A stretch of DNA of 47,681 nucleotides from Patescibacteria group bacterium (GTDB lineage Bacteria > Patescibacteriota > UBA1384 > 2-12-FULL-50-11), in NCBI GenBank assembly GCA_022843855.1, contig JALHMV010000004.1, positions 1 through 47,681 on the forward strand, given 5' to 3'. Position 1 is the stretch's first letter. Each line of letters opens with the position of its first letter. Below are positions 4,342 to 19,683 of this stretch, piece by piece. The translations under genes were made by a program, and so were the position numbers. The notes beneath the pieces were generated by a model, which was given only the letters and a program-made list of their open reading frames with translations, ran no database searches and was not told the origin of the DNA.

Positions 4342-4680
4342 ATGAGCAAAACACACAACGAAAAGCGCGCCGCCGCCAAGTCGAGCATCCGAATTAAGCT
4401 CAAAGCTTACGATTACCGGGTCATCGACCGCAGCGCCAAAAAGATCATCGAGACGGCTGAAAGAACCGGCGCGATTGTCGCCGGTCCGATCCCGCTGCCG
4501 ACGGAAAAAAATCTTGTCACCGTCAACCGATCGACCTTCGTCCACAAGGACGCACGCGAACAGTTCGAGATCCGCACCCACAAGCGCATCATCGACGTCT
4601 TGGACCCAAATCCAAAGACGCTTGATGCCCTAATGAACCTGGACCTTCCAGCAGGTGTAGACATCGAAATTAAAACGTAA
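4342..4680 (+). CDS. rpsJ: 30S ribosomal protein S10
   Basis: 112 aa. [39 protein letters not shown] is typical S10. Confidence 0.97.
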
Positions 4681-4749
4681 ACGTTTTACTTCTCGTTGCG
4701 AGGCAACTCGCAGTCAAAACCTAAGAGCTCAAAACAAGGTTTGCAAAAA

Positions 4750-4775
4750 GGCCGCTCACCAGAGCGGGCTTTTTG
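4750..4775 (+). terminator. Rho-independent terminator-like hairpin after rpsJ
   Basis: ccgctc-acca-gagcgg stem-loop followed by cttttt. It sits where rplC would normally follow rpsJ. Confidence 0.55.
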
Positions 4776-4824
4776 TTACCCGAATCTTTCCCGAACAGCT
4801 CGTCTGTAGTAAAATACCGTTAAC

Positions 4825-6315
4825 ATGGCAGCGGAAGCTAATCTTGAACAAAAACTTTGGGAGGCTGCTGATACATTGCGCGGAAATATTTCTTCATCTG
4901 AATACAAAGAGGTCGTTTTAGGCCTCATTTTTCTTAAATACATTTCCGATGCGTTCGAGAAGAAATATAATGAGCTGAAGCAGAGCCCGGTATCTGAGCC
5001 GGAAGATCGCGACGAATACACGATGGAAAATATCTACTGGGTGCCCAAACAGGCGCGCTGGTCCTTTATCCGTGATTACGCTAAACAGCCAGCAATCGGA
5101 ACCATTGTTGATAACGCCATGGAGGAGATCGAGAAAGATAATCCCGATCTTAAAGGGGTACTTTTCAAAAATTACGCACGTGAAAGTTTGGACAAACGCC
5201 GTCTCGGGGAGTTGATTGATATTATCTCCAGCATCGATATGTCGGGTCCGGACAAAGGAGATGTGCTGGGCCGCGTTTACGAATACTTTCTTGGTAAATT
5301 TGCCCATGCCGAAGGGCAACGCGGTGGTGAATTCTTTACGCCAAAATCAGTCGTGAAGCTGCTTGTCGAAATGGTCCAGCCGTTCAACGGCCGGGTGTAT
5401 GACCCGTGCTGTGGTAGTGGCGGCATGTTTATACAAAGTGAAAAATTTGTTCTCGACCATCAGGGCAGGATCGACGATATTCATGTCTTTGGCCAAGAGC
5501 TAAATACAACGACAATGCGGCTCGCCAAAATGAATCTGGCCATGCACCATATCGACGCCAAACTCGAGAACGGCGATACGCTCCATAATGATAAACACAA
5601 AGATTTAAAGGCAGATTTCATCCTTGCCAATCCACCGTTTAATGTCAGCGATTGGGGGGAAGAGCATTTGCGTAATGATCTCAGATGGAAGTACGGTATC
5701 CCACCGAAAGGTAACGCTAACTTTGCCTGGGTTCAGCATTTCATTCATCACTTAGCGCCGCGTGGTGTTGCTGGTTTTGTCTTGGCCAACGGTTCTATGG
5801 CCTCGCAAACATCCGGTGAAGGTGAAATTCGCAAGAATATTGTCGAAGCTGACTTAGTTGATTGTATTGTCAGCTTGCCGGATAAGTTATTCTTTAACGC
5901 GGCTATTCCTGCATGTCTGTGGTTCATTGCTCGCAATCGCGAAAACCGCAAAGGCAAGACACTGTTCGTCGACGCGCGCAATATGGGCACGATGATCAAT
6001 CGTCGGAACCGTGAACTGACTGATGCTGACATTCAGAAAATCTCCTATGCATACCACAGCTGGAAAGGTAGTAACGGTGGCGATTACAAGGATGTTCCTG
6101 GCTTTTGCAAGGTTGCCACAGTCAAAGAGATTGCCGAGCAAGACTATATCCTCACTCCTGGCCGCTACGTCGGCAGCGAAGAAATTGAAGAAGACGACGA
6201 GGCGTTCGAAAACAAAATAAAGAGGCTTACAGTAGAACTTTACAGTCAATTTGAGGAGAGCCGCAAGCTCGAATCAGAAATTAATGATAATTTGCGAAAG
6301 ATTAACTATGAGTAA
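4825..6315 (+). CDS. hsdM: Type I restriction-modification system, DNA methyltransferase subunit M
   Basis: 496 aa. HsdM N-terminal domain (LEQKLWEAADTLRGNISSSEYKEVVLGLIFLKYISD), AdoMet motif I (VYDPCCGSGGMF) and N6-adenine motif IV (NPPF). Confidence 0.93.
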   Translation: MAAEANLEQKLWEAADTLRGNISSSEYKEVVLGLIFLKYISDAFEKKYNELKQSPVSEPEDRDEYTMENIYWVPKQARWSFIRDYAKQPAIGTIVDNAMEEIEKDNPDLKGVLFKNYARESLDKRRLGELIDIISSIDMSGPDKGDVLGRVYEYFLGKFAHAEGQRGGEFFTPKSVVKLLVEMVQPFNGRVYDPCCGSGGMFIQSEKFVLDHQGRIDDIHVFGQELNTTTMRLAKMNLAMHHIDAKLENGDTLHNDKHKDLKADFILANPPFNVSDWGEEHLRNDLRWKYGIPPKGNANFAWVQHFIHHLAPRGVAGFVLANGSMASQTSGEGEIRKNIVEADLVDCIVSLPDKLFFNAAIPACLWFIARNRENRKGKTLFVDARNMGTMINRRNRELTDADIQKISYAYHSWKGSNGGDYKDVPGFCKVATVKEIAEQDYILTPGRYVGSEEIEEDDEAFENKIKRLTVELYSQFEESRKLESEINDNLRKINYE

Positions 6316-6838
6316 AAAGCGATTTACGACATACGCGTTTATAGACAGCCAGAACCTAAATCTGGGAACAAAAAAGGATATCTATAAGAATGGCAAGCGA
6401 ATATACAAAGGTTGGCAGTTGGATTTTAAGAAATTTCGACGCTATCTTTCAGATAAATTTAGGGTCGAGAAGGCTTTTCTCTTCATTGGATATATTAAGC
6501 AATACAGAAGCCTTTACCGGAGCCTTCGATCATACGGCTACGAGCTAGTCTTTAAGCCAACCGTCACAGATTCGGACGGTAAGCCAAAGGGTAATGTTGA
6601 CGCTGAGTTGGTACTGCACGCAGCGGCGATCGAGTACGGCAATTTCGATCAGGCGGTGATTGTTGCAGGTGACGGAGATTATAGGTGTTTATGTGAATTC
6701 TTGGTAACTAACAATAAGTTGCGAGCACTTGTTATTCCAAACTCCCTTTCCGAATCGGTATTACTGAAGGATTTTCAGAGATTCAAATTCTTTATTCAGT
6801 ACGAAAAAGATAAGTTGATTATGGAAACTCAGGGTTAA
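6308..6838 (+). CDS. NYN/LabA-like (PIN-fold) predicted ribonuclease embedded in the hsd operon
   Basis: 176 aa from ATG 6308, which overlaps the hsdM stop by 8 nt. Acidic motifs typical of NYN domains: AFIDSQN, GNVDAELV, VIVAGDGDY. Family call from motif memory, not a search. Confidence 0.72.
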   Translation: MSKKRFTTYAFIDSQNLNLGTKKDIYKNGKRIYKGWQLDFKKFRRYLSDKFRVEKAFLFIGYIKQYRSLYRSLRSYGYELVFKPTVTDSDGKPKGNVDAELVLHAAAIEYGNFDQAVIVAGDGDYRCLCEFLVTNNKLRALVIPNSLSESVLLKDFQRFKFFIQYEKDKLIMETQG

Positions 6839-6946
6839 AGGAAATGAGAGGCGTCACATATAACACGCAGTTATACGCTCGTTTCTCTCTCCTGATATCT
6901 AGATTTTCTCATTTTTCTCTACTTAGTCAACCTATTAAGGCTCCAA

Positions 6947-8104
6947 ATGACTAAAACTGTCTTGCTCGGAAATGTTGCAGAAATAAATGCAAATCAGGTA
7001 GGAAAAGGGTATCCATATGAAAAAATAAAATATATTGATGTGGCTTCAGTAAGTAGCGGTAAGGTCGAGAAGATAGATTTAGATTTAGCTAACGCTCCAA
7101 GCAGAGCAAGACGCATTGTACGCGACAATGATATTTTGATTTCTACGGTGCGGCCGAATTTGAAGCACTTCGCGTACATACCAGAAGCCGAGGAAAACTT
7201 GGTTGCCTCGACTGGCTTCGCCACAATTTCTGGCAGCCAAAATGTTGATCCAAAGTACCTCTACTACTATATGACCAGAGACGATATAACAAATTACCTT
7301 ACTTCAGTGGCCGAAGGCCAAGCTACTACATTTCCAGCCTTCCGACCTGAAATTTTACAGAATCTAAAAATTACCCTGCCTGAGCTTGAACAGCAAAAGA
7401 AGATTGGCAACTTTCTTTATTCTCTGGATAAAAAAATCGAACTCAACCAGCGGATGAATGAGACACTGGAAAAAATCGGCCAAACACTTTTTAAGCACTA
7501 CTTCATCGACAACCCCGACCGAAATAATTGGGGAAAACGGTCTTTGAACAGCTTCGGAGAGATAATATGTGGAAAGACACCGCCGAAAAATCGCGCCGAA
7601 TATTTTGGTGGAGTAATTCCCTTCATAAAAATTCCTGACATGCATGGGCAGGTTTTTATTACCGAAACGCAAGATAACCTGACAGAACCTGGTCGAGACT
7701 CTCAAAGAAATAAAACACTGCCCGCCAACACGATATGCGTAAGTTGTATTGCAACTGTCGGGCTAGTTTCGCTTACTTCACAGCCGTCGCAAACAAATCA
7801 GCAAATAAACTCAGTAACACCGACTGAAAAGGAGTACACCTATTATCTATACTTCATGCTCAAAAGCATTAAATCTCAATTGATTGACATGGCCAGCGGA
7901 GGTTCGGCAACGCCTAACTTGAATACTTCATCATTTTCTAAGATTTCTATCACCACTCCTGACAATAAAATTCTTCGTAAATTCGACCAGACTGTAAGAA
8001 TAATTTTCGAGAGGATTCTTAATAACCAAAATCAAAACAAACAGCTAGCCGAGCTTCGCGACTCACTTTTGCCGCGGTTAATTTCTGGGAAAATTCATGC
8101 TTAA
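6947..8104 (+). CDS. hsdS: Type I restriction-modification system, specificity subunit S
   Basis: 385 aa with two target-recognition halves separated by the conserved helical spacer (LPELEQQKKIGNFLYSLDKKIELNQRMNETLEKIGQTLFKHYF). C-terminal repeat of the same type (QLAELRDSLLPRLISGKI). Confidence 0.88.
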   Translation: MTKTVLLGNVAEINANQVGKGYPYEKIKYIDVASVSSGKVEKIDLDLANAPSRARRIVRDNDILISTVRPNLKHFAYIPEAEENLVASTGFATISGSQNVDPKYLYYYMTRDDITNYLTSVAEGQATTFPAFRPEILQNLKITLPELEQQKKIGNFLYSLDKKIELNQRMNETLEKIGQTLFKHYFIDNPDRNNWGKRSLNSFGEIICGKTPPKNRAEYFGGVIPFIKIPDMHGQVFITETQDNLTEPGRDSQRNKTLPANTICVSCIATVGLVSLTSQPSQTNQQINSVTPTEKEYTYYLYFMLKSIKSQLIDMASGGSATPNLNTSSFSKISITTPDNKILRKFDQTVRIIFERILNNQNQNKQLAELRDSLLPRLISGKIHA

Positions 8105-9470
8105 GACGGTAAAGATTTCGCAATATAAAGGTTTCTACGGTACTCAGACGATAGAATTTGCAGTACCAAATAATTCAAGTTTTGGTAGTGGATTAACACT
8201 TGTTGTGGGACCGAATAATACGGGCAAGACCACGGTGATAGAATCATTACTCATTACAGAATCTAAGAAATTCAAAGAAAGTGAGCGACATGGTAAAAAT
8301 GTGCCTAAAATTGTCATAGGAAACACGCAAGGTGGTGCGACGACCTACACCAATAATCGTGGCGGGTCATTAATAAGCTTTTCTGGGGCGCATCATGGGA
8401 TAAATTTTGAACTCATCCCTTCAAGGCGATACTGGCAGTATAAGTTTGGAGGACAACATAATTTTCAACAGTTGGTTAGCCAATCCATTGCAGGAGAGAC
8501 CAGAAATTCGAATGTCTTCGATTTGGGCCCGGTATTAAAAACCATACTTTCCGATAGTCGGATTTTGGAAAGGTTTAACTCACTAATGAAGAGGGTGATC
8601 CCGCACTTTACAAGCTGGACAATTGATACGGGCGATGATGGTAGCGACTACGTAAAATACAAAACAGCCAGCACCTACCATCAATCGAATTTGTTGGGTG
8701 ATGGCATCATCTCTCTGTTTAGGATAGTTGCCCACTTAATCCATGACCAGTCGACTACTTTTATTATTGACGAGCCAGAACTTTCGCTCCACCCCGCAGC
8801 ACAGAAAAGGCTCGCTGCGGTTTTGTCTGAACTCTCTAAAGATAGACAGATAATAATCTGTACTCACTCTCCTTATTTTATTAACTGGCATGATTTTGCT
8901 AATGGAGCAAAAGTGATACGGCTGAACAAGGACGCAGAGACCCCTTGTCGCGTTTACTCGCTGGACAACTCAAAAGACTACTCTCGCTTTATTTCAGGAA
9001 CGATAAATGAATATCAGAAACCTCAATTGCTAGACTTAGCAGCAAAGGAAATTCTATTTAGCGACAGAATATTTTTTACCGAGGGGCAGGAGGATGTTGG
9101 TTTAATTAAAAGGTGGATGGCAGATAACGATATAGCTCAACCATTCGAAATATTTGGCTATGGCGTGGGCGGAGAAAAAAATATGAAGCTCTTCTTGGAA
9201 ATGGCGAAAGATCTTGGAATTGCAAAAGTAGCGGCATTATATGACTCAAATTCAACAAATTATAGCTCCGATCAGAGTAGTTATCCCGACTTCTTATTAA
9301 AAAAGCTTTCGACCGAAGACATTCGGGACAAAGTAAATAGGTGCATACGAAGTTGCCCATACGGGAAAGATAGAAACGGCACTTTTCTTTCAAATGGGAG
9401 AATCAAAACAACGGAAAAATCTAATTTCCAAGCTTTAATGAATGAAATAGTAACGCACTTATCGACTTAA
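8097..9470 (+). CDS. ABC-type ATPase fused to a Toprim/DUF4435-like C-terminal domain (OLD-family-like), embedded between hsdS and hsdR
   Basis: 457 aa. Walker [10 protein letters not shown] (aa 38-46), signature-like LLGDGIISL, Walker [13 protein letters not shown] (aa 222-233), H-loop ICTHSP. C-terminal [16 protein letters not shown] (Toprim-like Glu, aa 329) and AALYDSNS (degenerate DxD). Overlaps the hsdS stop by 8 nt and ends 1 nt before the hsdR ATG. Confidence 0.72.
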
Positions 9471-9471
9471 A

Positions 9472-12400
9472 ATGACTGAAGAAAAAATCGAAAAAGAGGC
9501 ATTGAAAATTTTAGAACGGCTTGGCTGGCAGATTTTGAGCGGGCCGGAAATCGGACCGGAAGGGTCGAGTGAGCGAAAGTACGACGAAGTAATTTTGACA
9601 CGGCGTCTTAGCGAAGCGATTGCGCAGTTAAACCCACGACTTCCAGCATCCACGATCGACGAAGTCGTCAAAAAAGTTAGTCGTCATGATCATCCGGAAA
9701 TGCTGCTGGACAATCACCAATTTCACCAGCAATTAACCGATGGTGTGAGTGTTGAATATAGGGCATCAAATGCCGAAGTTCGGACTGAGCAGGCGAGGGT
9801 TTTTGATTTTGAGAATCCTGAAAACAATGAATTCGTAGCAGTTAATCAGTTCACGGTTATTAATGGCGATTATCACCGTCGACCGGACATTGTTCTGTTT
9901 GTAAGCGGTTTACCATTGGGAATCATTGAAATTAAAGACCCGACTGATGAAAGAGCAACATTAGAAAGTGCATATAACCAACTGCAGACATACGAAGCGG
10001 AAATTCAGCCGTTATTTCGATTCAACGCACTGGAAATAATTACCGACGGCATTGATGCGGAGGTTGGAACAATCAGTGCAACCTATGAACGCTTTAATGC
10101 TTGGAAAAGCATTGATGGCAAAAAAGATCACTCAGGCGTACCTATGCTGAAAGTATTGCTGCGTGGTGTTTGTGACAAAGCGCGATTTTTAGAAATAGTT
10201 CGTAGCTTTATTGTTTTTGAAAAAGATAAAAAACACGGATTTATTAAAAAGCTGGCTGGCTATCACCAATACTGGGCAGTGCAAAAAGCGCTTGACTCTA
10301 CCGTGAAATCAATTCGACCGGGCAGTGATCATCGCGTGGGAGTTATTTGGCATACGCAAGGATCCGGTAAGTCGCTGTCCATGGTTTTTTATGCAGGCAA
10401 GTTGGTCGCTAATCCAGAACTCAGAAATCCAACGGTAATTGTGGTGACAGATCGAAACGATTTAGATAACCAGTTATTTGATACATTCTCGAACTGTCCT
10501 GAGTTGTTGCGTCAAATGCCGGTACAGGCAGAAAGTCGTGACCATTTACAGGAAATACTCAAAGTTCAGTCGGGCGGAATTATTTTCACAACCAATGCAA
10601 AATTCTTTCCAGAAAACGGCAAAGAATTTCCGCTATTAAGTGATCGAGAAAACATTATTGTGATTGCTGACGAAGCCCATCGCAGTCAGTACAACTTTAT
10701 TGACGGCTTCGCCAAACACATTCGCGATGCCTTGCCCAATGCTAGCTTTATTGGTTTTACGGGTACGCCAATTGAGGCCGATGATCGTTCAACACCAGCA
10801 GTGTTTGGTGACTACTTAGATGTTTATGACATCGAGCAGGCCGTTAAGGACGGGGCGACTGTTCCAATTTATTACGAAAGTCGTCTTGTTGAGCTGGATA
10901 TCAACAAAGATATGCGAGCCCGTATAGATAATGAAGTTGCCGAAGTAATCGGTGAGGAAGAGTTAGATCGTCAAGAAGAACTGAAGGCAAAATGGGCGCA
11001 AGTTGAGGCGGTGGTTGGCAACTCAAAACGAATTGAACGAATTGCTAGCGATATAGTTGAGCACTTTGATAATCGCCTTAGTGCAATCGACGGTAAGGGC
11101 ATGATTGTGACGATGAGTCGACGGATAGCAGTTGATTTATATAGCGCCATTGTCTCCCTGAAACCGGAGTGGGTAGGGGAAAGCGACAAGGAGGGTTTCC
11201 TAAAAGTGATAATGACTGGCTCAGCAACCGATCCGGTTGATTGGCAACAGCATATTCGTTCAAAAGAACGGCGCAGAGAGTTGGCGGATCATTTCAAGGA
11301 GCCAAGCTCACCGTTTAAGCTGGTGATCGTGTGCGATATGTGGTTGACAGGTTTTGATGCGCCAAGTTTACATACTATGTATCTAGATAAGCCGCTAAAA
11401 GGCCATAACTTAATGCAAGCTATTGCGCGAATTAACCGTGTGTATACGGATAAGCCCGGCGGTGTAGTTGTTGACTATCTGGGCGTCGCCGCAGCTTTGC
11501 GTGAAGCATTGCAGGACTACACGGTAAGTGGTGGCAAAGGCCGACCAACGCTCGATCAGCGCGAAGCTGTGGCGGTGATGATGGAAAAAATCGAGCAACT
11601 TCGCGATATGTTTCACGATTTCCCATATCGAAAGTACTTTACGGCTGATACTAAACGGCAGTTGCAGGTCTTGTTGGATGCTCAGGAATACGTCCTCTTG
11701 CAAGAAGAAGGGGAGAAGCGCTTGAAGCAGTATGTTCTAGAGCTTTCGAAGGCATTTGCATTAGCCGTTCCAAATGCGCAGGCACTGGCGACTCGCGAAG
11801 AGGTGGCATTCTTCCAGGCGGTGAGAGCGAGGCTTTCTAAGATTGTAGAAAAGGGGAAGAGCGATCAGGACTTTGGGGCGGCAATCAAACAGATCGTTGA
11901 TAAAGCCATCGCCCCGGCTGGTGTGGTGGATATCTTCGAAGCCGCGGGAATTGATAAACCAGATATTTCTATACTGTCTGACGAATTCCTGGCTGAGATT
12001 AGAGGTATGGAGCGCAAAAATTTAGCGGTTGAGGCATTGCGTAAGCTGCTGGACGGAGAGATCAAGGCAAAATTCTCCAAAAATGCAGTAAAGCTTGGTT
12101 CGTTTGCCGAGATGTTGGAGAAGGCCTTGTTGCGTTATAAAAACAATGCGATTGAAGCCGCGCAAGTCATTGAAGAATTGATAGAAATCGCCAACACTAT
12201 TCGATCTTCGGAAGAAGAAGGTGAAAAACTTGGTCTGTCGCCTGATGAGATTGCATTTTACGATGCATTGGCACAGAACGACAGTGCTCGTGCGGTGATG
12301 GGTGATGACAAATTGCGTGACTTGGCACGATTGTTGGTGAAAAGGGTTCGAGAGAATATTACTGTTGATTGGTCAGTACGAGAAGCAGCTCGCGCTCGTC

Positions 12401-12528
12401 TTAAAGTTATGGTCAAAAGACTACTACGAGAATACGGTTATCCGCCAGATCAAGAAAAAATAGCAACTGAGCTTGTGCTTGTGCAGGCTAGTTTGTTTGG
12501 CGACGAATGGAGTAGTCGTGACCGCTAA
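9472..12528 (+). CDS. hsdR: Type I restriction enzyme, endonuclease/translocase subunit R
   Basis: 1018 aa. N-terminal PD-(D/E)xK nuclease ([21 protein letters not shown]). SF2 motor motifs HTQGSGKS (I), [10 protein letters not shown] (II, DEAH) and FTGTP (III). C-terminal helical domain of the kind seen in HsdR ([10 protein letters not shown]...[10 protein letters not shown]). Confidence 0.93.
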
Positions 12529-12784
12529 ACAATTTCAAAATTTACTTAAGAAAAAGCATCAAGCAATAATAGGGGCGCAGTTTTGTTTTTTGATTGCGTT
12601 TGCGGTAGTGATCGGTAATCAGCACAACGCTTTAACAGCGCGGGATAGAAAAGCGCAACAAGTGCAGCAGAGTCTCCATGATATTAGTCAGTGGCATCGA
12701 GCTGAGTATGGGGCGCGCTACGAAGCGGTCGCTCACTCGCTTCTTTTGTTGGATGCGTACGAACAGGGTGGTGTGGAAAAATGA
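12518..12784 (+). CDS. Small single-pass membrane protein, paralog 1 (shorter copy)
   Basis: About 88 aa from GTG 12518; TTG 12497 is an alternative start. The start lies inside the last codons of hsd[33 protein letters not shown]...[15 protein letters not shown] aligns with the 13208 ORF. Start is uncertain. Confidence 0.5.
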
Positions 12785-12797
12785 CAAGAAGTATCTG

Positions 12798-13211
12798 ATG
12801 TCTAAACCGTTTCGCTCTGATAATGCACAAATCAGAAAGACTACAGAAGAGATCCATGGTCACCTTCATCTTGTTCTGAATGACATTGCCCATACTTGCC
12901 CAGACGGTGGCCTCCAGGAGTGTATAGACGGTCAGTTGATCGAATATATTCAACGCCGGAAGGGCTGGCACCCGATTGGAGAAAACGGTTTTTCCTACAA
13001 AAATGGGATCAAAGTTGTTGTTGATTCTTATCGATTTTCAAACGCTTTCGAAACGGTATTGAATATCGGGAAAGAGCTGCTGCGCGCTGAACTTGAGGGC
13101 TTGATTAAAGAATCGGCCAACAAAGGTGATGAAATACGGCGTGCGCTAAAAGAATTCGAGAGTAAAGATTGGACCGCCGCATTTGTTCGGAGGATTGTAA
13201 GTGAAAAATGA
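12798..13211 (+). CDS. Hypothetical soluble protein (137 aa)
   Basis: ATG 12798 lies 13 nt after the paralog-1 stop, and the stop overlaps the next ATG (ATGA at 13208). No recognisable motifs. The C-terminal half is predicted helical. Confidence 0.5.
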   Translation: MSKPFRSDNAQIRKTTEEIHGHLHLVLNDIAHTCPDGGLQECIDGQLIEYIQRRKGWHPIGENGFSYKNGIKVVVDSYRFSNAFETVLNIGKELLRAELEGLIKESANKGDEIRRALKEFESKDWTAAFVRRIVSEK

Positions 13212-13609
13212 TCAAACGCCTAACCGCTCGACAACTCCGGGTACTTGTCAAACAAAAGCACCGCGCCATTATCGGCGCTCAACTGGGGTTACTCCTTATA
13301 TTTGCTATTTTTATCTCGATGCAATACCGCTCGTTGGAACAACTACAGGGCAAGGTTGCTGACTATCAACAGAGTCTCGGACAGATCAGCACTATGCATC
13401 GAGCGCAATGGCGGGCCAGTACCGATGCGACTTTTCATGCGCTTGGGATGCCGGACGCCTATCTCGAAGGCGTCGAAAAGGTCGATGAGGTCTACGAGGC
13501 GGTGATGGCTGCATCTGAAGAAGCCGTCCGGCAGAAAGATCTTATTATTGAAGAGCTAAAAAAATACGGCATCGTGCCGCCGCCTGAGGAACCGACACCG
13601 GCGACCTAA
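13208..13609 (+). CDS. Small single-pass membrane protein, paralog 2 (longer copy, 133 aa)
   Basis: TARQLRVLVKQKHRAIIGAQLGLLLIFAIFIS...QQSLGQISTMHRAQW...AYLEGVEKV aligns with 12518-12784. It has an extra ~45-aa C-terminal tail ending in a Pro-rich stretch. Confidence 0.6.
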   Translation: MIKRLTARQLRVLVKQKHRAIIGAQLGLLLIFAIFISMQYRSLEQLQGKVADYQQSLGQISTMHRAQWRASTDATFHALGMPDAYLEGVEKVDEVYEAVMAASEEAVRQKDLIIEELKKYGIVPPPEEPTPAT

Positions 13610-13653
13610 TTGATTTCCGTGCATTTTGGGTTGTTGCGACTTATGATGATGCT

Positions 13654-14490
13654 ATGAACCAACTCATTACGAACATTCAATGGAAAAAGGTCGGGATCGG
13701 CGCTTTTTGGGCAGTGACAATTTTAGGCTACTTCTCGCTCGTCGCAGTTGTTATGGTGTATTTTTCACCAATCCTGGACGAGCAACTAACGAATCCAGTT
13801 ACTGGTGAAGCATGTCGAGGTGATGCCACGGTAGTCAACATCCCCATCAGCGGCTCACTGTATACCTATCATTTCGAAGAAGGCGACACCGCCTCGTTGG
13901 ATATTACACAGTTGATCCGTCGGGCAAACGATTCGCCAAATATTAGCGCCATTGTCCTTGAGATTGACTCTCCCGGAGGCGATCCAACCGCTGGCGAAGA
14001 AATCGCGGCGGCGGTTGCTGCATCTGAGAAACCGGTGTATGCCCTTGCGCGGGGTTACGCCACATCAGCTGCTTACTGGGCTGGTCTGACCTCGAAAGCG
14101 TTCTATGCGCATTCAACTTCCTTAGTGGGAAGTATTGGTATAACCGCGTCGTACGTGGATGCTGCCGAAAAGAATAAACGGGATGGCTTAACGTACAACC
14201 AATTGTCGACGGGGAAGTTTAAGGATTTATTTGATCCCAACAAGCCGCTCACTAAAGATGAGCGAACTCATATTGAGACGGAGTTAAACAAGTTTAAGGA
14301 ACTATTTGTTGACCAAGTCGCAACATTGCGCAAATTGCCGCGAGAAGAAGTGGTCGCTTTAGCGGACGGCTCCGCGTTGTTGGGTGGAGACGCTAAGACC
14401 AAGAAGTTGATCGATGAAGTCGGAACGATGACGGACGTTAAGAAGCGAATTGAGGCAGACACCGGTACGCCAGCCCTTCTTTGCTGGTAA
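13654..14490 (+). CDS. sppA: Signal peptide peptidase SppA-like serine protease (peptidase family S49), membrane anchored
   Basis: 278 aa with an N-terminal TM (VGIGAFWAVTILGYFSLVAVVMVYF). S49 motifs: LEIDSPGGDPTAGEEIAAAV, ARGYATSAAYWAGL (nucleophile Ser region), SLVGSIGI. Confidence 0.75.
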   Translation: MNQLITNIQWKKVGIGAFWAVTILGYFSLVAVVMVYFSPILDEQLTNPVTGEACRGDATVVNIPISGSLYTYHFEEGDTASLDITQLIRRANDSPNISAIVLEIDSPGGDPTAGEEIAAAVAASEKPVYALARGYATSAAYWAGLTSKAFYAHSTSLVGSIGITASYVDAAEKNKRDGLTYNQLSTGKFKDLFDPNKPLTKDERTHIETELNKFKELFVDQVATLRKLPREEVVALADGSALLGGDAKTKKLIDEVGTMTDVKKRIEADTGTPALLCW

Positions 14491-14521
14491 GAATTATTAG
14501 TACGAATAGTTTTAGGTAATG

Positions 14522-14550
14522 AAAAGGCCGGGTCCATAGAGGACCCGGCC
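14522..14550. terminator. Strong hairpin between convergent genes; the T-run is on the minus strand
   Basis: Perfect 10-bp stem ggccgggtcc / ggacccggcc with a 5-nt loop. Preceded by aaaa on the plus strand, which reads as tttt after the stem on the minus strand. Confidence 0.6.
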
Positions 14551-14567
14551 GTGGCAGACGGAGCTGC

Positions 14568-15065
14568 CTAGTTTGGGTTTGCCAGGAAGTCGCGAAGCTC
14601 CTGGCGGGCTTTGGTTTCGGCATCGAGCTGGTTGACGGCCTCCTTCGCCGTTGTCAGCGCGGTGTCGATCGCGGTGTCGGGACCGATTGCGTCGTAGGCT
14701 TTCTCAAGCACTTCGACGCTCAGTTCTTGGACGTTGAGCGATTGGCACATCGCTGCCAATGTCAGTCGTTCGTCTTGGAGTTTATCTAGCTCGCTCGCGA
14801 CGATTTCCATTTGGGCAGCGATAGCTTCGAGAGCTGTCGCGTACGAACGGTGAACTTCAGCGACTGCCTCAAGCTCACTTTTTGCTTGATTGGCCAAGTC
14901 TGGATCGGGGTAGGTGGACTTCTGCGTCCAGTCGTCAACGATCAGCTTGGCGTCAGCGGTCAGCTCTTCCAACACACCCGCGGCCAGGTAGGCGTTGCGA
15001 ATATGCTGGATTCGTGGCTGGACCTTGCCGAGCCACTCATGGAAGATCGCATCGCCGTTTGGCAT
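14568..15065 (-). CDS. Hypothetical all-helical protein (165 aa), third gene of a minus-strand operon
   Basis: The ATG shares 1 nt with the upstream gene's TGA (TGATG at 15063-15067). Acidic, coiled-coil-like sequence (ELEAVAEVHRSYATALEAIAAQMEIVASELDKLQDERL). No known motif. Confidence 0.6.
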   Translation of the reverse strand: MPNGDAIFHEWLGKVQPRIQHIRNAYLAAGVLEELTADAKLIVDDWTQKSTYPDPDLANQAKSELEAVAEVHRSYATALEAIAAQMEIVASELDKLQDERLTLAAMCQSLNVQELSVEVLEKAYDAIGPDTAIDTALTTAKEAVNQLDAETKARQELRDFLANPN

Positions 15066-15916
15066 CAGACAACTCCCATTTGCTTGACTTCGGCCGGCGA
15101 CATTTCTTTACCGACGTAGACGACGCAATCGGAGCCTTCTTCGGCCCACATTGCGACCATCCGGCGACCGGTGAAGCTCTTGTCACCACTGACAAAGTCG
15201 GCTCGCATGTCGTAGTACGACACCGGTCGACCGACCGTGGTGAGGAGCGTCGGAACGTCGTCGGCAAACTCGCCCAATTCCGAAAGCACCGAAGTGCATT
15301 CGATCGTGCTTTGGCCGGGATTGCGACCGCCCTCGTTAAGGCCGTAGGCGCCGTTGATCTCCCATTGGCAACCACGAAACTCGCGAATCGCCTGATCGGG
15401 AGTGTCGTCTCCGGCTTTGACGTCGTCGAGAAGCTCCTTGCGCTCTTTGAGGAGCAGGTTGGCTTCGCTACTGGTAATGGGCAGTTCCGTTAAAAGGAAC
15501 CATTTCTTCGGCGTTTTCATGATGAGCATGTCGCCGGAGAGCCAGATGAACTGAGTGATCGCTACGCCTTGCGGCGTATAGATATTAGCTAGCGCCGTGG
15601 TGACGACGGTCCGATTGGCTTTCCAGGATTTGGATCCCGGAGCGTAGTTCGGTACGTCGCTGATGACTTGACCAGCTCGGGCTTCGTCGACGGTGATAGC
15701 TTCAACGATATCATCGCTGGGGTTGGTGTCGGGTTCTTCGCGATGAATCACCCGGCCGTTAGCCCGTAGTTGGGGTTCTTGGGCAGCGACTTTCTTAACG
15801 TATCCGAACCACGGGCCAATATGATTTGGCCAGAGGTCGGTCACGATCCAAAAGACGCCGGCGCCGATGACGATCAGGTACACAATGACCTGAAGAACGT
15901 GAAAGAGTGTCCACAT
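15065..15916 (-). CDS. Hypothetical membrane-anchored protein (283 aa), possibly DUF4178-like
   Basis: N-terminal TM (VLQVIVYLIVIGAGVFWIV). The body has two beta-rich segments (ITQFIWLSGDMLIMKTPKKWFLL; GRRMVAMWAEEGSDCVVYVGKEM) reminiscent of DUF4178. This is a tentative call. Starts 6 nt after the upstream stop. Confidence 0.6.
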   Translation of the reverse strand: MWTLFHVLQVIVYLIVIGAGVFWIVTDLWPNHIGPWFGYVKKVAAQEPQLRANGRVIHREEPDTNPSDDIVEAITVDEARAGQVISDVPNYAPGSKSWKANRTVVTTALANIYTPQGVAITQFIWLSGDMLIMKTPKKWFLLTELPITSSEANLLLKERKELLDDVKAGDDTPDQAIREFRGCQWEINGAYGLNEGGRNPGQSTIECTSVLSELGEFADDVPTLLTTVGRPVSYYDMRADFVSGDKSFTGRRMVAMWAEEGSDCVVYVGKEMSPAEVKQMGVV

Positions 15917-15922
15917 AGTTGA

Positions 15923-17347
15923 TTAGTCTCCTCCGCCGAACGAACCAGATCCCGGTCCGCCGAATGATCCGCCCATGCCTCCGCCTGAGCTTCCACCACC
16001 GTAACCGCTCCCGAAGCCGCCTCCGCTTGAGCCGCCATACCCGCCGTAGCTGCCGCCAGAAGAACTGGAGCCGCTATCGTAGGATGTTGTCGGTGGGGGT
16101 GGGGTGTAGGTGTCAACCTCATCGTAGGCTTGGTTAGCCAGACTAGTTGCCGTTTGATAGTGAGTGACCGCCAAGACGGGGTCACTGGCTTCATATTGCC
16201 GGGCCGAATCGCGATGCCGACGAGCACTTGCCAGAGTTGCCTCGGCGGTGTCTTGGTCGTTTCGATCTTCCCAGTCGTCAATATGCTCAGCAGCGCGGCT
16301 GATGGCCGAGTTGGCATCGATACGCTCTGATCGCATGACGGCGACAGCATTACGGACGCGAACGTCGAAGTTGTGCACCGACTTGATGTAGTTCTGGATC
16401 TTGGTGAGCTCGCCTCGAACGCTGCGCAAAAGCACATCAGCCCTGGCAAACTCTTGGGTATCCATACTATTGAGTCGGTTGATCTCGCCCAATGTTTGTT
16501 CGAGATTCGCCAATGACCGCTGATGCGTTGTAAGCCCGGCAGTGAAGCCTTTGCGGTTGTAGGCGCTATAGCGTTCAATCCGCACGGCAGCGTTGTACGC
16601 ATCGGTAAACGAATTACGAAGCGTGCCGAGCGTGTTGCCGGCGTTGCCTGAGAGCTCATTGACGGTCTGACGCAGCTTGGGAGCGCGATCAGCCAGTTCT
16701 AACGATTGTGTGGCGACGCTTTTGGCCTCTTCGCCAATGGCGAAGATCCGGACGTAATCTGGACGATTGTCCCGAGGGTCAATCGCGTTCATGAGCCGGG
16801 CCACTTTCGCTTCGGTTTCGTTGAGCTGGCCAATTACCATGCGAGCGTCACCGAAGTGACGATCGAAGTAGCCGTTGGCAATATGCCCGGCGATCCGGTT
16901 GGTCGTTGCCTGGCTGTAGGCGTTGATTTGGCTGACGACGTTGGGGTAGGCCTCGAGGGCCGTGTCCAAGTCGGTTAGCCCAGCAGTCAAAGCCTTCATA
17001 TCGCGCTGAACTTCAGCGAGGATGTAGCTGGCCTGACCGGTTGCCACTGCCACGGGTTTTGGGTTGGGACCGTCGGCGGCCTTCAGCTTGCTTGTCGCTT
17101 GTTCGAGCGCGGTGATGAGGTCGTTGACCGACAAGTTGTCTGTGTACTTCGGATGCGTTTGTTTCGCAGCCGTGACACGGGCAAGAATGTCGGTCCGTAA
17201 TTCGTTGGTTGTCTTGGTGATAGCTGCCTGAACCGTATCGCGTTGGCGATAGATCTTTCCCGCTTCGTAGTCCTTACCGAACCCGAAGACGAGAGAGAGG
17301 GCAAACAGTCCCAAGATCCATTGCGGAATCGTTGAGCGATTGTTCAT
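15923..17347 (-). CDS. Hypothetical N-terminally anchored long helical protein with a Gly/Ser-rich C-terminal tail (474 aa)
   Basis: Preferred start is ATG 17347 (MNNRSTIPQWILGLFALSLVFGF = TM), preceded by aggaaac. About 400 aa of helical/coiled-coil sequence, then PPPPTTSYDSGSSSSGGSYGGYGGSSGGGFGSGYGGGSSGGGMGGSFGGPGSGSFGGGD. Confidence 0.62.
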   Translation of the reverse strand: MNNRSTIPQWILGLFALSLVFGFGKDYEAGKIYRQRDTVQAAITKTTNELRTDILARVTAAKQTHPKYTDNLSVNDLITALEQATSKLKAADGPNPKPVAVATGQASYILAEVQRDMKALTAGLTDLDTALEAYPNVVSQINAYSQATTNRIAGHIANGYFDRHFGDARMVIGQLNETEAKVARLMNAIDPRDNRPDYVRIFAIGEEAKSVATQSLELADRAPKLRQTVNELSGNAGNTLGTLRNSFTDAYNAAVRIERYSAYNRKGFTAGLTTHQRSLANLEQTLGEINRLNSMDTQEFARADVLLRSVRGELTKIQNYIKSVHNFDVRVRNAVAVMRSERIDANSAISRAAEHIDDWEDRNDQDTAEATLASARRHRDSARQYEASDPVLAVTHYQTATSLANQAYDEVDTYTPPPPTTSYDSGSSSSGGSYGGYGGSSGGGFGSGYGGGSSGGGMGGSFGGPGSGSFGGGD

Positions 17348-17536: not shown

Positions 17537-18595
17537 TTACATTTTCCTAGTCGTGACCTTCTCCCAAGGGAATGTTTTGCTCGAGAAGTGGCCGTTAATC
17601 GCTGTTTGGCGGTAGATTGGCTGACGTAGGTCTAGGAATTTGATAATCCCTGCTGGTGAGAGGTCGAAATTCTTAACCACCCAATCTCGAGCGGGATAGT
17701 CGGTATCGGTCCAAGCGTCCACCATCACGGGATCGTTATGGCCAATGGCGTAGGCGCACGAGACGAGACATTCGTTGCACCACCCTTGTGAAACAATATT
17801 TTTTGCCAAATAGCGGGCCATGTACGCTGCTGAGCGATCAACTTTGGTTGGGTCCTTTCCACTAAAACAACCGCCACCCTGCGGAATGAGGCCGCCGTAG
17901 GTGTCGACCATGATCTTGCGACCAGTCAGTCCGGTATCTGCTTCAAACCCTCCTTGTAAGAAAATTCCGGTTGGGTTGATGTGGCAATCCTCGAATCGCA
18001 GGTTGGCAACAACCGGTTGTATGACGTGCTCGAATATTTGCTGGCGTAGTTCGTCGGTAGTGATTGTTTCTTCGTGTTGAGTAGAGACGACAACGGTCCA
18101 AACCGAATTGTCGACGGTGGTGACTTGGGCTTTGCCGTCGGGGCGAAGCCAGCTAAATTTTGGATTATTTTTGCGCAATTCCGTCAGCCGATCAGTTAAC
18201 TTGTGAGCCAGAACCACTGGTAGCGGTAAAAGCTGCGGTGTCTCTTTGGTGGCGTAGCCATACATAATTCCTTGGTCGCCTGCGCCGCCCGTGTCGACGC
18301 CCAGAGCGATGTCTGAAGATTGAGTAACGATCTTAACGGTAATATCTAGCGCGTCAGCGTAGCCTATCGATCGATAGACTTGCTTGGCAACATTGGCAGC
18401 GTCAACGGTTGCCTTCGAAGTTACCTCGCCAACAATAAACAAGACACCGTGACCCCCTACGGCTTCGACCGCAACGCGGCTATTTGGGTCGTCTGTTAGA
18501 TATGCATCAAGAATTGCATCGGAAATTTGGTCGCAAATCTTGTCTGGGTGTCCTTCGGTCACTGACTCAGCCGTTCTCCACTGGCTTATAATCAT
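17537..18595 (-). CDS. metK: S-adenosylmethionine synthetase
   Basis: 352 aa with ESVTEGHPDKICDQISD, GAGDQGIMYGYA and GGGCFSGKDPTKVDRSAAY motifs. SD aaggagg lies 5 nt upstream. Confidence 0.95.
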   Translation of the reverse strand: MIISQWRTAESVTEGHPDKICDQISDAILDAYLTDDPNSRVAVEAVGGHGVLFIVGEVTSKATVDAANVAKQVYRSIGYADALDITVKIVTQSSDIALGVDTGGAGDQGIMYGYATKETPQLLPLPVVLAHKLTDRLTELRKNNPKFSWLRPDGKAQVTTVDNSVWTVVVSTQHEETITTDELRQQIFEHVIQPVVANLRFEDCHINPTGIFLQGGFEADTGLTGRKIMVDTYGGLIPQGGGCFSGKDPTKVDRSAAYMARYLAKNIVSQGWCNECLVSCAYAIGHNDPVMVDAWTDTDYPARDWVVKNFDLSPAGIIKFLDLRQPIYRQTAINGHFSSKTFPWEKVTTRKM

Positions 18596-18903: not shown

Positions 18904-19683
18904 ATGGAACCTGAGAAACGACTGGCCGGCCTGCGACGATTTAACTGGGTTATGGCGGTTTTGCATGCGGCGCAAGGCATTGCCATTATTGCATTGAGTG
19001 TCGACTTTAAGTTACCGATTACGGCGAATTACCTAACGTTTGATGTCGCAACTCAGTCGTTACTGCCGGCTTCGAGCGAACTATTCAGGCTGTCCCTACC
19101 TTGGTTGGTGGCAGTATTCTTCTTCCTCTCGAGCTTTGCGCACCTGAGTATTGCGAGTTACTACAACAAGACCTACGACGACAATCTCTTGAAGGGCATT
19201 AATAAGGCTCGGTGGTGGGAGTATTCTTTCTCGGCTTCAATTATGATGATCGCAATTTCGCTGCTGGTTGGTATCTACGACTTTGGTAGCCTACTCATGA
19301 TCTTTTCGCTCGTTGCAACGATGAACTTGCTCGGTTTGGTAATGGAAGTGCAAAATCAGGGTCGCCTTGAGCGCGGCGAGAAGCCAAACTGGTTTAGCTT
19401 CAACTTGGGTTCGTTCGCTGGCCTAATTCCGTGGATCGTGGTCGGGTTAGCGTTTTACTGGAGCGCAAAATTTAGCGGCGCGACGCCGCCAACGTTCGTC
19501 TATTGGATCTATGTCTCGATCTTCGTTTTCTTCAACTGTTTCGCGTTGAACATGATTTTGCAGTACAAGAAGGTCGGAAAGTGGGCAGACTATCTCTACG
19601 GCGAGAAAGCCTACATCGTACTGAGCTTGGTCGCCAAATCGCTGCTCGCGTGGCAGGTATTTGCCGGTACACTTCGTCCGTAA
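18904..19683 (+). CDS. Heliorhodopsin (7-TM retinal protein, inverted topology family)
   Basis: 259 aa, collinear with the reference heliorhodopsin 48C12 as I recall it. FNWVMAVLHAAQ (His), SSFAHLSIASYY (His), RWWEYSFSASIMM (counterion Glu). C-terminal GEKAYIVLSLVAKSLLAWQVFAGTLRP against GERAYIVLSLVAKSALAWQIFSGTLIPA (Schiff-base Lys, here Lys245). SD aaggag upstream. Confidence 0.9.
   Translation: MEPEKRLAGLRRFNWVMAVLHAAQGIAIIALSVDFKLPITANYLTFDVATQSLLPASSELFRLSLPWLVAVFFFLSSFAHLSIASYYNKTYDDNLLKGINKARWWEYSFSASIMMIAISLLVGIYDFGSLLMIFSLVATMNLLGLVMEVQNQGRLERGEKPNWFSFNLGSFAGLIPWIVVGLAFYWSAKFSGATPPTFVYWIYVSIFVFFNCFALNMILQYKKVGKWADYLYGEKAYIVLSLVAKSLLAWQVFAGTLRP

Follow-up and report, generated by a model that had tools for sequence, protein, structure and literature searches.

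The prrC gene lies between hsdS and hsdR in the prr locus, and its product joins an N-terminal ABC-type NTPase to a C-terminal nuclease. PrrC is embedded in a Type IC restriction–modification (R–M) locus and is activated by Stp (PMC12707154). Genes nested within Type I loci have been documented (Matelska et al., 2017, PMC5499597; Payne et al., 2024, bioRxiv 10.1101/2024.01.29.577857; Vizzarro et al., 2024, PMC11411939). Among the earlier cases are PIN-like nucleases whose transcription is coupled to that of Type I R–M genes (PMC5499597). Embedded defence genes are usually autonomous systems (Payne et al., 2024), and for Proteobacteria such nesting has been described under the term ‘guilt-by-embedding’. 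Here, we analyse a 47,681-nt stretch of DNA from a Patescibacteria group bacterium (contig JALHMV010000004.1; ‘the window’, in whose positions coordinates are given), which contains five co-directional genes on the plus strand (4825–12528): hsdM, a NYN-domain gene, hsdS, a gene for an ABC-ATPase/Toprim protein of OLD type, and hsdR. We favour, with moderate confidence, the view that a single strain-variable defence cassette spans positions of about 4800–12517 and is made of a Type I backbone and two independent passengers, the OLD and NYN genes. The precedent for such nesting, on which the first-pass annotation of this DNA had drawn, is more extensively documented than it had claimed.

Class 1 OLD proteins (P2 Old, TsOLD and Escherichia coli YbjD among them) are defined as isolated single genes with no conserved partner (PMC6755086, PMC10568477); in the review literature, class 1 genes are described as not being near other defence genes, and their function is listed as an open question. 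P2 Old is triggered by RecBCD inhibitors, and PARIS (AriA/AriB) and Gabija (GajA/GajB) are triggered by Ocr (summarised in Payne et al., 2024). In the same survey, HEC-04 is a validated single-protein ABC ATPase–TOPRIM defence and HEC-09 is an embedded NYN protein that gave no phenotype; among the matches listed from its supplementary tables, HEC-09 is the only NYN- or OLD-like entry (Payne et al., 2024).

The backbone of the window locus consists of hsdM (4825–6315; 496 amino acids), which encodes the Type I N6-adenine DNA methyltransferase subunit, hsdS (6947–8104; 385 amino acids), which encodes the specificity subunit with its two target-recognition domains, and hsdR (9472–12528; 1018 amino acids), which encodes the translocase–endonuclease subunit. 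HsdM matches the Pfam families HsdM_N and N6_Mtase (E = 2.6e-112) and the PADLOC family MTase_I (1.1e-207), and is 83% identical to the HsdM of a related locus, L001 (L-numbers denote the loci or contigs of relatives compared with the window). Two stretches of HsdS match Methylase_S in Pfam, and PADLOC assigns the protein to Specificity_I (9e-85). HsdR contains the Pfam domains HSDR_N, SWI2_SNF2, T1R_D3-like and T1RH-like_C, and is recovered over its full length by PADLOC as REase_I (1127 bits) and by NCBIfam TIGR00348 hsdR (4e-186). All three genes have full-length matches in Pfam, PADLOC and NCBIfam and show no frameshifts, and on these matches the R–M system is complete and apparently intact.

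The two additional genes sit in the two slots between these subunits. The NYN gene (6308–6838; 176 amino acids) is located between hsdM and hsdS, and the OLD gene (8097–9470; 457 amino acids) between hsdS and hsdR. The five open reading frames (ORFs) and the junctions between them agree fully with the first-pass annotation: the NYN ATG at 6308 lies in 8 nt (ATGAGTAA) that are common to the NYN start and the hsdM stop, the OLD start likewise overlaps the hsdS stop by 8 nt (ATGCTTAA), and a single spacer base separates the OLD stop from the hsdR ATG. The start codons of both genes are consistent with the N-termini in their respective family alignments. Only the junction between NYN and hsdS is loose, with a gap of 108 nt.

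The limits of the cassette were defined by comparison with close relatives. Within the Patescibacteria, the EF-Tu of the window is nearest to those of metagenome-assembled genomes (MAGs) of Candidatus Berkelbacteria. The closest contig, L121, comes from a sister strain whose EF-Tu and S10 are both 98% identical to those of the window. It is flanked in the same way, by the rpsJ terminator to the left and, to the right, by a small gene for a protein with one hydrophobic segment and then a heliorhodopsin gene. In place of the window region at about 4800–12517, L121 carries a Type III cassette (10653–17155), in which a gene for an Old-like ABC ATPase stands between mod and res. This Old-like protein (PADLOC Old, 2.6e-60) contains IVEGHSD and ILHD motifs; the junctions between its gene, mod and res overlap, and the gene lies directly before res. 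On the left, the two contigs align with 81% identity (blastn, L121 10574–10652 versus window 4719–4796) and homology ends near 4796–4800, about 30 nt past the rpsJ hairpin, a bidirectional terminator-like structure located by a terminator scan at 4752–4767 (+) and conserved as the left flank. On the right, homology resumes at 12519, at the start codon of the small gene (blastn, L121 17157–17418 versus window 12519–12780). The segment between these two points therefore forms one allelic cassette. The small gene that makes up the conserved right flank (12518–12784, +) probably starts at a GTG and shares 11 nt with the end of hsdR, and its homologue in L121 begins with an ATG that overlaps the stop codon of res.

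The composition of the cassette genes (GC content 0.40–0.46) also departs from that of the surrounding host genes (0.50–0.57). In L001 the hsd cassette is located after dnaK, whereas that of the window follows rpsJ, which indicates that it is mobile between genomic sites. The site after rpsJ is itself a hot spot, since relatives carry different content there: L122 (EF-Tu 96% identical) has the order rpsJ–orf106–PIF1 and no NYN gene after rpsJ, and L084 (S10 91% identical; 12–947) has rpsJ, a terminator, a NYN gene, the structured motif described below and then a PIF1-like helicase gene, with neither hsdM nor any other hsd gene.

The NYN protein matches Pfam PF01936 as predicted in the first-pass annotation (E = 1.2e-12; 49 bits against a cut-off of 24.2), and PADLOC has no family for it. 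Its only significant structural match is PDB entry 2QIP (3e-9 by sequence; TM score 0.67–0.72 by fold), which corresponds to the LabA-like NYN protein VPA0982 (NYN.COG1432). The residues Asp13, Asn16, Asp98, Asp122 and Asp124, which include the catalytic Asp/Asn set of LabA-like proteins, are invariant in the family alignment, and we predict a metal-dependent RNase of LabA (PIN-like) type. The subfamily differs from other LabA-like proteins in being unusually conserved across the Patescibacteria and in having a dedicated structured motif at its 3′ end. Its homologues, of about 70% identity, number more than 8000, and the named ones all come, but for one, from Patescibacteria (Daviesbacteria, Levybacteria, Gottesmanbacteria, Parcubacteria and others). 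Elsewhere its neighbours are housekeeping genes (NUDIX/YchF, a methyltransferase with a G5-domain gene, HisRS, L13/S9 and Obg), and hsdM was found nearby in one of 19 metagenome loci. Besides that of the window, a single NYN locus, L086 (485–3504), lies near a Type I gene; there the order is NYN, a staphylococcal-nuclease-like gene on the opposite strand and an hsdM whose product is 56% identical to the window HsdM. The NYN gene is AT-rich both in the window (GC content 0.405 versus about 0.53 for the flanking host genes) and in L084 (0.39 versus 0.53 for its neighbours). Direct repeats at the borders of the NYN module, which would hint at transposition, were also sought; only a 9-mer in L084 was found, and nothing general.

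The 108-nt gap that follows the gene is not a plain spacer, because a conserved NYN-linked motif lies within it. This motif, of about 50 nt (6846–6896, +), is directly 3′ of the NYN stop and takes up half of the gap. It has an outer stem (GRGAG/CTCYC) extended by GCG/CGU, encloses an inner hairpin and ends in YTGAT, and it follows NYN in at least ten other loci, including L084–L092, L107 and L110 (for example at 955–1005 in L084, about 2768–2815 in L089 and about 4526–4575 in L107). RNAalifold recovers three helices with 14 pairs, five of them with compensatory changes, which fall in two of the helices; 97.4% of the cells of the alignment are paired, the observed score is reached by none of 500 shuffles, and no slid control has more than one compensatory pair. 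In more distant NYN genes the same position is occupied by a terminator-like hairpin. The motif does not correspond to a known RNA, as no Rfam family matches it, nor to a conserved small ORF, as start codons and frames (read by eye) differ between loci. In most loci a TTGTCA/TGTCAA box resembling a −35 element occurs about 35–45 nt past the motif. The motif is therefore the NYN module’s own 3′ element, which may terminate or process the transcript. Its position in the NYN–hsdS gap means that the five genes may form two transcription units, hsdM–NYN and hsdS–OLD–hsdR, rather than a single operon. A search of the rpsJ–hsdM and NYN–hsdS gaps for sigma-70-type promoters gave no plus-strand site upstream of hsdM or hsdS, and such sites are fewer in the region overall than in shuffles. 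Our literature search found no paper joining the NYN domain with Patescibacteria, and no description of this NYN subfamily with its 3′ motif.

The second passenger has the Pfam domains expected from its first description as an OLD-like ATPase, namely AAA_15/AAA_21 and OLD-like_TOPRIM (PF20469), and its best PADLOC family is Old (1.2e-22), alongside the Type I methyltransferase, specificity and endonuclease families found for its hsd neighbours. A profile built from 35 homologues, on which the conservation described here is also based, has as its best match in the PDB the class 1 OLD protein of Thermus scotoductus (TsOLD; PDB entry 6P74; 2.4e-22), with an alignment that extends from Walker B to the Toprim domain; next come AriA, GajA and retron ATPases, mostly matched in the ATPase part. 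The AlphaFold model (pLDDT 88.6) aligns to the same structure over most of its length (Foldseek, 475 alignment columns for a query of 457 residues, E = 3.6e-15), and its ATPase part resembles SMC/Rad50 heads. The Walker A (GPNNTGKT), Walker B (IIDEPE) and H-loop (THSP) motifs are invariant or nearly so among the 35 homologues. In the Toprim domain the conserved residues are Glu329, Asp333 and Asp383, together with a DIRDK motif (Asp408, Asp411 and Lys412). When aligned with 6P74 by hidden Markov model (HMM), Glu329 and Asp333 match the Glu/Glu+4 spacing and Asp383 the first Asp of DxD; the reference residues in Bp OLD are Glu400, Glu404 and Asp455/Asp457 (PMC6755086). Asp408 is invariant and Asp411 and Lys412 are nearly so (at least 90% of the 35 sequences), and these residues may provide a second metal site and a conserved Lys. 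On this evidence the window protein is a compact class-1-like member of the OLD nuclease family, putatively competent as a nuclease. Several homologues (P0205, P0213, P0216 and P0234) have a Trp at a family-invariant Gly (for example TWPNNTGKT), as expected for genomes using code 25 (TGA = Gly) when TGA is translated as Trp, and the Gracilibacteria locus L038 gave no intact ORF under table 11.

A scan of GTDB, with one genome per species, gave at least 492 relatives of OLD, spread over many bacterial phyla and some archaea. An hsd homologue lies within 10 kb in only about six of the 76 loci examined, and no Pfam family recurs among 67 same-strand immediate neighbours of OLD in these loci; OLD is therefore basically a solo gene. 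A different picture is obtained among close relatives of the window protein (56–78% identical), where the gene occupies the hsdS/hsdR slot in five of 11 contexts. It does so in L001 (OLD 78% identical), L002 and L003 (59%), L106 (57%) and L118 (58%), the gene upstream of OLD in L118 being a Methylase_S gene by Pfam. In L001, L002, L118 and L106 the spacing between OLD and hsdR ranges from −4 to +6 nt (the L003 contig ends within hsdR and was left out). In the more distant L015 (36%), the order is hsdM–PDC-S05–hsdS–OLD–orf154–hsdR, and a 154-residue ORF intervenes, so that OLD and hsdR are 471 nt apart. No hsd genes were found near OLD in the close relatives L004, L005, L103–L105, L115–L117, L119 and L120. 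In a neighbour-joining tree the hsd-embedded members are interleaved with solo ones, which rules out a single ancient capture giving one embedded clade; OLD therefore moves in and out of the hsdS/hsdR slot repeatedly, or has repeatedly been lost from it. The hsdM/hsdS slot of the related operons is variable. It contains two small ORFs of unknown function in L001 (3096–3913), a DUF3800 gene and an unknown 264-residue gene in L002 (1637–2383), and PDC-S05 in L015 (7727–8827; E = 1.5e-150), one of the candidates that the survey of embedded genes had yielded (Payne et al., 2024). In both L001 and L002 the gene before hsdS overlaps the hsdS start by 4 nt. Viral contigs yielded five near full-length OLD-family members and two good NYN matches, so few that neither gene can be considered notably phage-borne.

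Among the described systems, class 1 OLD is the closest to the window protein, both in its best PDB match by profile and by fold and in the mostly isolated, single-gene state of the family. It nevertheless differs in length (457 residues versus 528 for TsOLD) and in setting, since the window copy and several relatives are nested in an R–M operon, where class 1 genes by definition stand alone. PARIS and Gabija share the association of an ABC ATPase with a Toprim nuclease. However, matches of AriA to the window protein are limited to the Walker B region in both PADLOC and the PDB, and the first-pass suggestion of a DUF4435 domain found no match at E ≤ 0.01; as for Gabija (OLD class 2), no GajB-type UvrD/PcrA-like helicase adjoins the gene, whose neighbours are hsdS and hsdR, and none is present in the cassette. 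PrrC in the EcoprrI system has a comparable ABC-type NTPase, C-terminal nuclease and nested position, but the effector in the window protein is a Toprim rather than an anticodon-nuclease domain, and no PrrC model is found among the best 25 of 158 PADLOC matches. The embedded systems of Payne et al. (2024), Campylobacter Rlo and Vibrio TgvAB are likewise same-strand genes between subunits of Type I R–M, BREX, DISARM or Hma systems; here, the host is a Patescibacteria genome. BLASTP aligns HEC-04 (residues 1–399 compared) with the window OLD over only 87 residues around Walker B, and HEC-09 with the window NYN over 42 residues (E = 0.014). Apart from superfamily motifs, then, the window proteins have no sequence homology to HEC-04 or HEC-09, and domain and sequence tests rule out PARIS, Gabija, PrrC and HEC-04 as identities of the window OLD.

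These comparisons lead us to the following picture of the cassette, which occupies, in a Berkelbacteria-like Patescibacteria genome, a hot spot bounded by the rpsJ terminator on one side and by the small membrane-protein gene on the other. HsdM, HsdS and HsdR would function as an ordinary Type I enzyme. The overlapping stop and start codons probably allow OLD to be co-translated with HsdS and HsdR, and the protein would be an autonomous, ATP-regulated second-line nuclease, probably acting by abortive infection: its ATPase domain would sense a phage cue and its Toprim domain would then cleave nucleic acid. Nesting would ensure its co-expression and co-transfer with the R–M genes, and would add protection against phages able to evade restriction or to inhibit it. 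NYN, together with its 3′ motif, would be a hitch-hiker in the hsdM/hsdS cargo slot, a partner neither of OLD nor of the R–M enzyme; it may encode an RNase that is defensive or toxin-like in function, or may be a resident RNA-processing gene.

Several observations weigh against parts of this picture. The OLD-like_TOPRIM match is only 0.3 bits above its cut-off (23.5 versus 23.2 bits), and the second Asp of DxD, in which the protein also departs from class 1 OLD, is absent (Asp383-Ser-Asn; family consensus D-x-G/N); with so degenerate a DxD, nuclease competence has to be assumed. If the NYN motif terminates transcription, as it may, the description of the five genes as one operon is weakened. 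A simple single insertion does not explain the rpsJ–NYN adjacency that the window has in common with L084; NYN may have been at the site before the hsd genes, or the site may capture NYN modules repeatedly. Finally, about half of the close OLD relatives are found in the identical slot with coupled codons, which exceeds simple defence-island clustering, and the regularity of this slot, together with the OLD-type gene before res in the sister strain, argues for a functional tie to the restriction subunit.

The adjacency of rpsJ and NYN raises the question of whether NYN is a passenger at all. It could be a resident housekeeping gene for RNA processing beside rpsJ, around which the hsd genes were assembled by recombination, its place in the operon then being a historical accident. 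The order in L084, where NYN and its motif follow the rpsJ terminator with no hsd gene, fits this well, as do the very large size of the family, its high identity across Patescibacteria classes, its housekeeping flanks and the retention of its own 3′ motif inside the operon. Yet when compared with L121, NYN falls within the swapped cassette and outside the conserved flank, and L122 has no NYN after rpsJ. The composition of the gene is foreign in both the window and L084 (GC content 0.39–0.41 versus 0.53), the hsdM/hsdS slot of related operons gathers defence candidates (PDC-S05 and DUF3800), and the enclosure of a resident gene by hsd genes requires two precise insertions. We consider a resident origin of NYN possible, although we would not bet on it.

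The regular position of OLD leads to a second alternative, in which the protein is wired to R–M as PrrC is to EcoprrI, so that the inhibition of restriction would unleash the Toprim nuclease. It might be held inactive by HsdR or the methyltransferase or monitor them, or might sense DNA-mimic anti-restriction proteins, as in the pairing of PARIS and Ocr. The slot and the architecture are those of PrrC, the hsdS/hsdR slot with its coupled codons recurs as described above, the sister strain has an OLD-like gene directly before res in its allelic Type III cassette, and the pairwise identities of OLD and HsdR are roughly congruent. In addition, anti-defence proteins are the triggers to which known ABC-ATPase defence proteins respond (Payne et al., 2024). 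On the other side, most family members, including relatives that are 57–61% identical, have neither hsd nor any other R–M gene nearby; since most relatives are solo, OLD cannot generally need an R–M partner. The embedded members form no clade, homologues of PrrC are almost exclusively hsd-embedded (Payne et al., 2024) whereas the OLD family is not, and no PrrC or AriB-type (DUF4435) domain was detected in the protein by Pfam or among the best 25 of 158 PADLOC matches. A direct guard on restriction is thus plausible but unlikely, a little more so than a resident NYN. The recurrence of the inserts in hsd operons, which the first-pass annotation had proposed to examine, was found for OLD, in the same hsdS/hsdR slot, and almost never for NYN. 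The functional dependence on the R–M complex that it had considered is not indicated, both families occurring mainly without hsd genes, and its idea of a backup triggered when restriction is inhibited can reasonably be entertained for the OLD gene only.

A broader version of this alternative extends to both passengers. The OLD-type genes upstream of hsdR and res would constitute a dedicated ‘restriction guardian’ class that works as PrrC does but with a Toprim effector, co-translated with the translocase–nuclease and activated once ATP-dependent restriction has been disabled by anti-restriction proteins of a phage; NYN and its motif would form a separate, undescribed module of an RNase and a cis-acting RNA, self-regulating or resembling type III toxin–antitoxin systems, that is widespread in Patescibacteria. 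We hold this joint proposal to be rather improbable.

The weakest alternative is that NYN and OLD together form a new RNase and ATPase-nuclease defence system with the Type I operon as scaffold, as their nesting in one cassette with coupling-type junctions might suggest; we find it very improbable, and by the co-occurrence data it is close to refuted, because other OLD-carrying hsd operons hold unrelated hsdM/hsdS cargo, with NYN in none of them, no OLD gene is found in the 19 NYN metagenome loci or in the P0037 and P0006 contexts, where NYN is without it, and hsdS separates the two genes in the window. A conserved or recurring pair, as implied by the first-pass annotation, is ruled out by the surroundings of OLD in about 95 loci and of NYN in about 25, since only one of these loci has both. 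This locus, L026 (9309–11353), belongs to a Chitinophagales MAG and is the sole NYN–OLD adjacency outside the window: with no hsd gene present, a NYN homologue (47% identical) precedes an OLD homologue (34%) by about 170 nt. The adjacency in so unrelated a genome speaks for a pair, but a terminator-like hairpin separates the two genes.

Our preferred reading remains that of a Type I backbone with two independent passengers, and the surroundings of the cassette have some features of their own. The genes rpsJ (S10; 4342–4680) and rplC (L3; 24540–25124) are about 20 kb apart, so that rpsJ is split off from the ribosomal protein cluster; between them lie the defence cassette, an S49 peptidase gene, genes of unknown function, metK, the heliorhodopsin gene and a serine hydrolase gene. 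The small gene at the right flank has a paralogue at 13208–13609, each encoding one hydrophobic segment, and an unknown 177-residue ORF is located between the two. A SAM riboswitch (RF00162; 18651–18751, −; 46.8 bits) lies upstream of metK (17537–18595, −). It is adjoined by the heliorhodopsin gene (18904–19683, +; PF18761, E = 1e-92), which is conserved in L121.

Patescibacteria have tiny cells and tiny genomes, with few recognised defence systems. The locus is a further case of the known nesting of defence genes, here in an under-studied phylum, and not a new paired system. The site after rpsJ is a compact and swappable defence hot spot, in which Patescibacteria R–M backbones carry extra nucleases, as in Proteobacteria. 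The most interesting lead is that both cassettes have an OLD-type gene immediately before the gene for the restriction subunit: its presence in a Type I and in a Type III allele provides a natural test pair for the guarding of ATP-dependent restriction. The second lead is the RNA motif that accompanies NYN, a very abundant and uncharacterised family of predicted RNases; the motif may represent a new RNA family.

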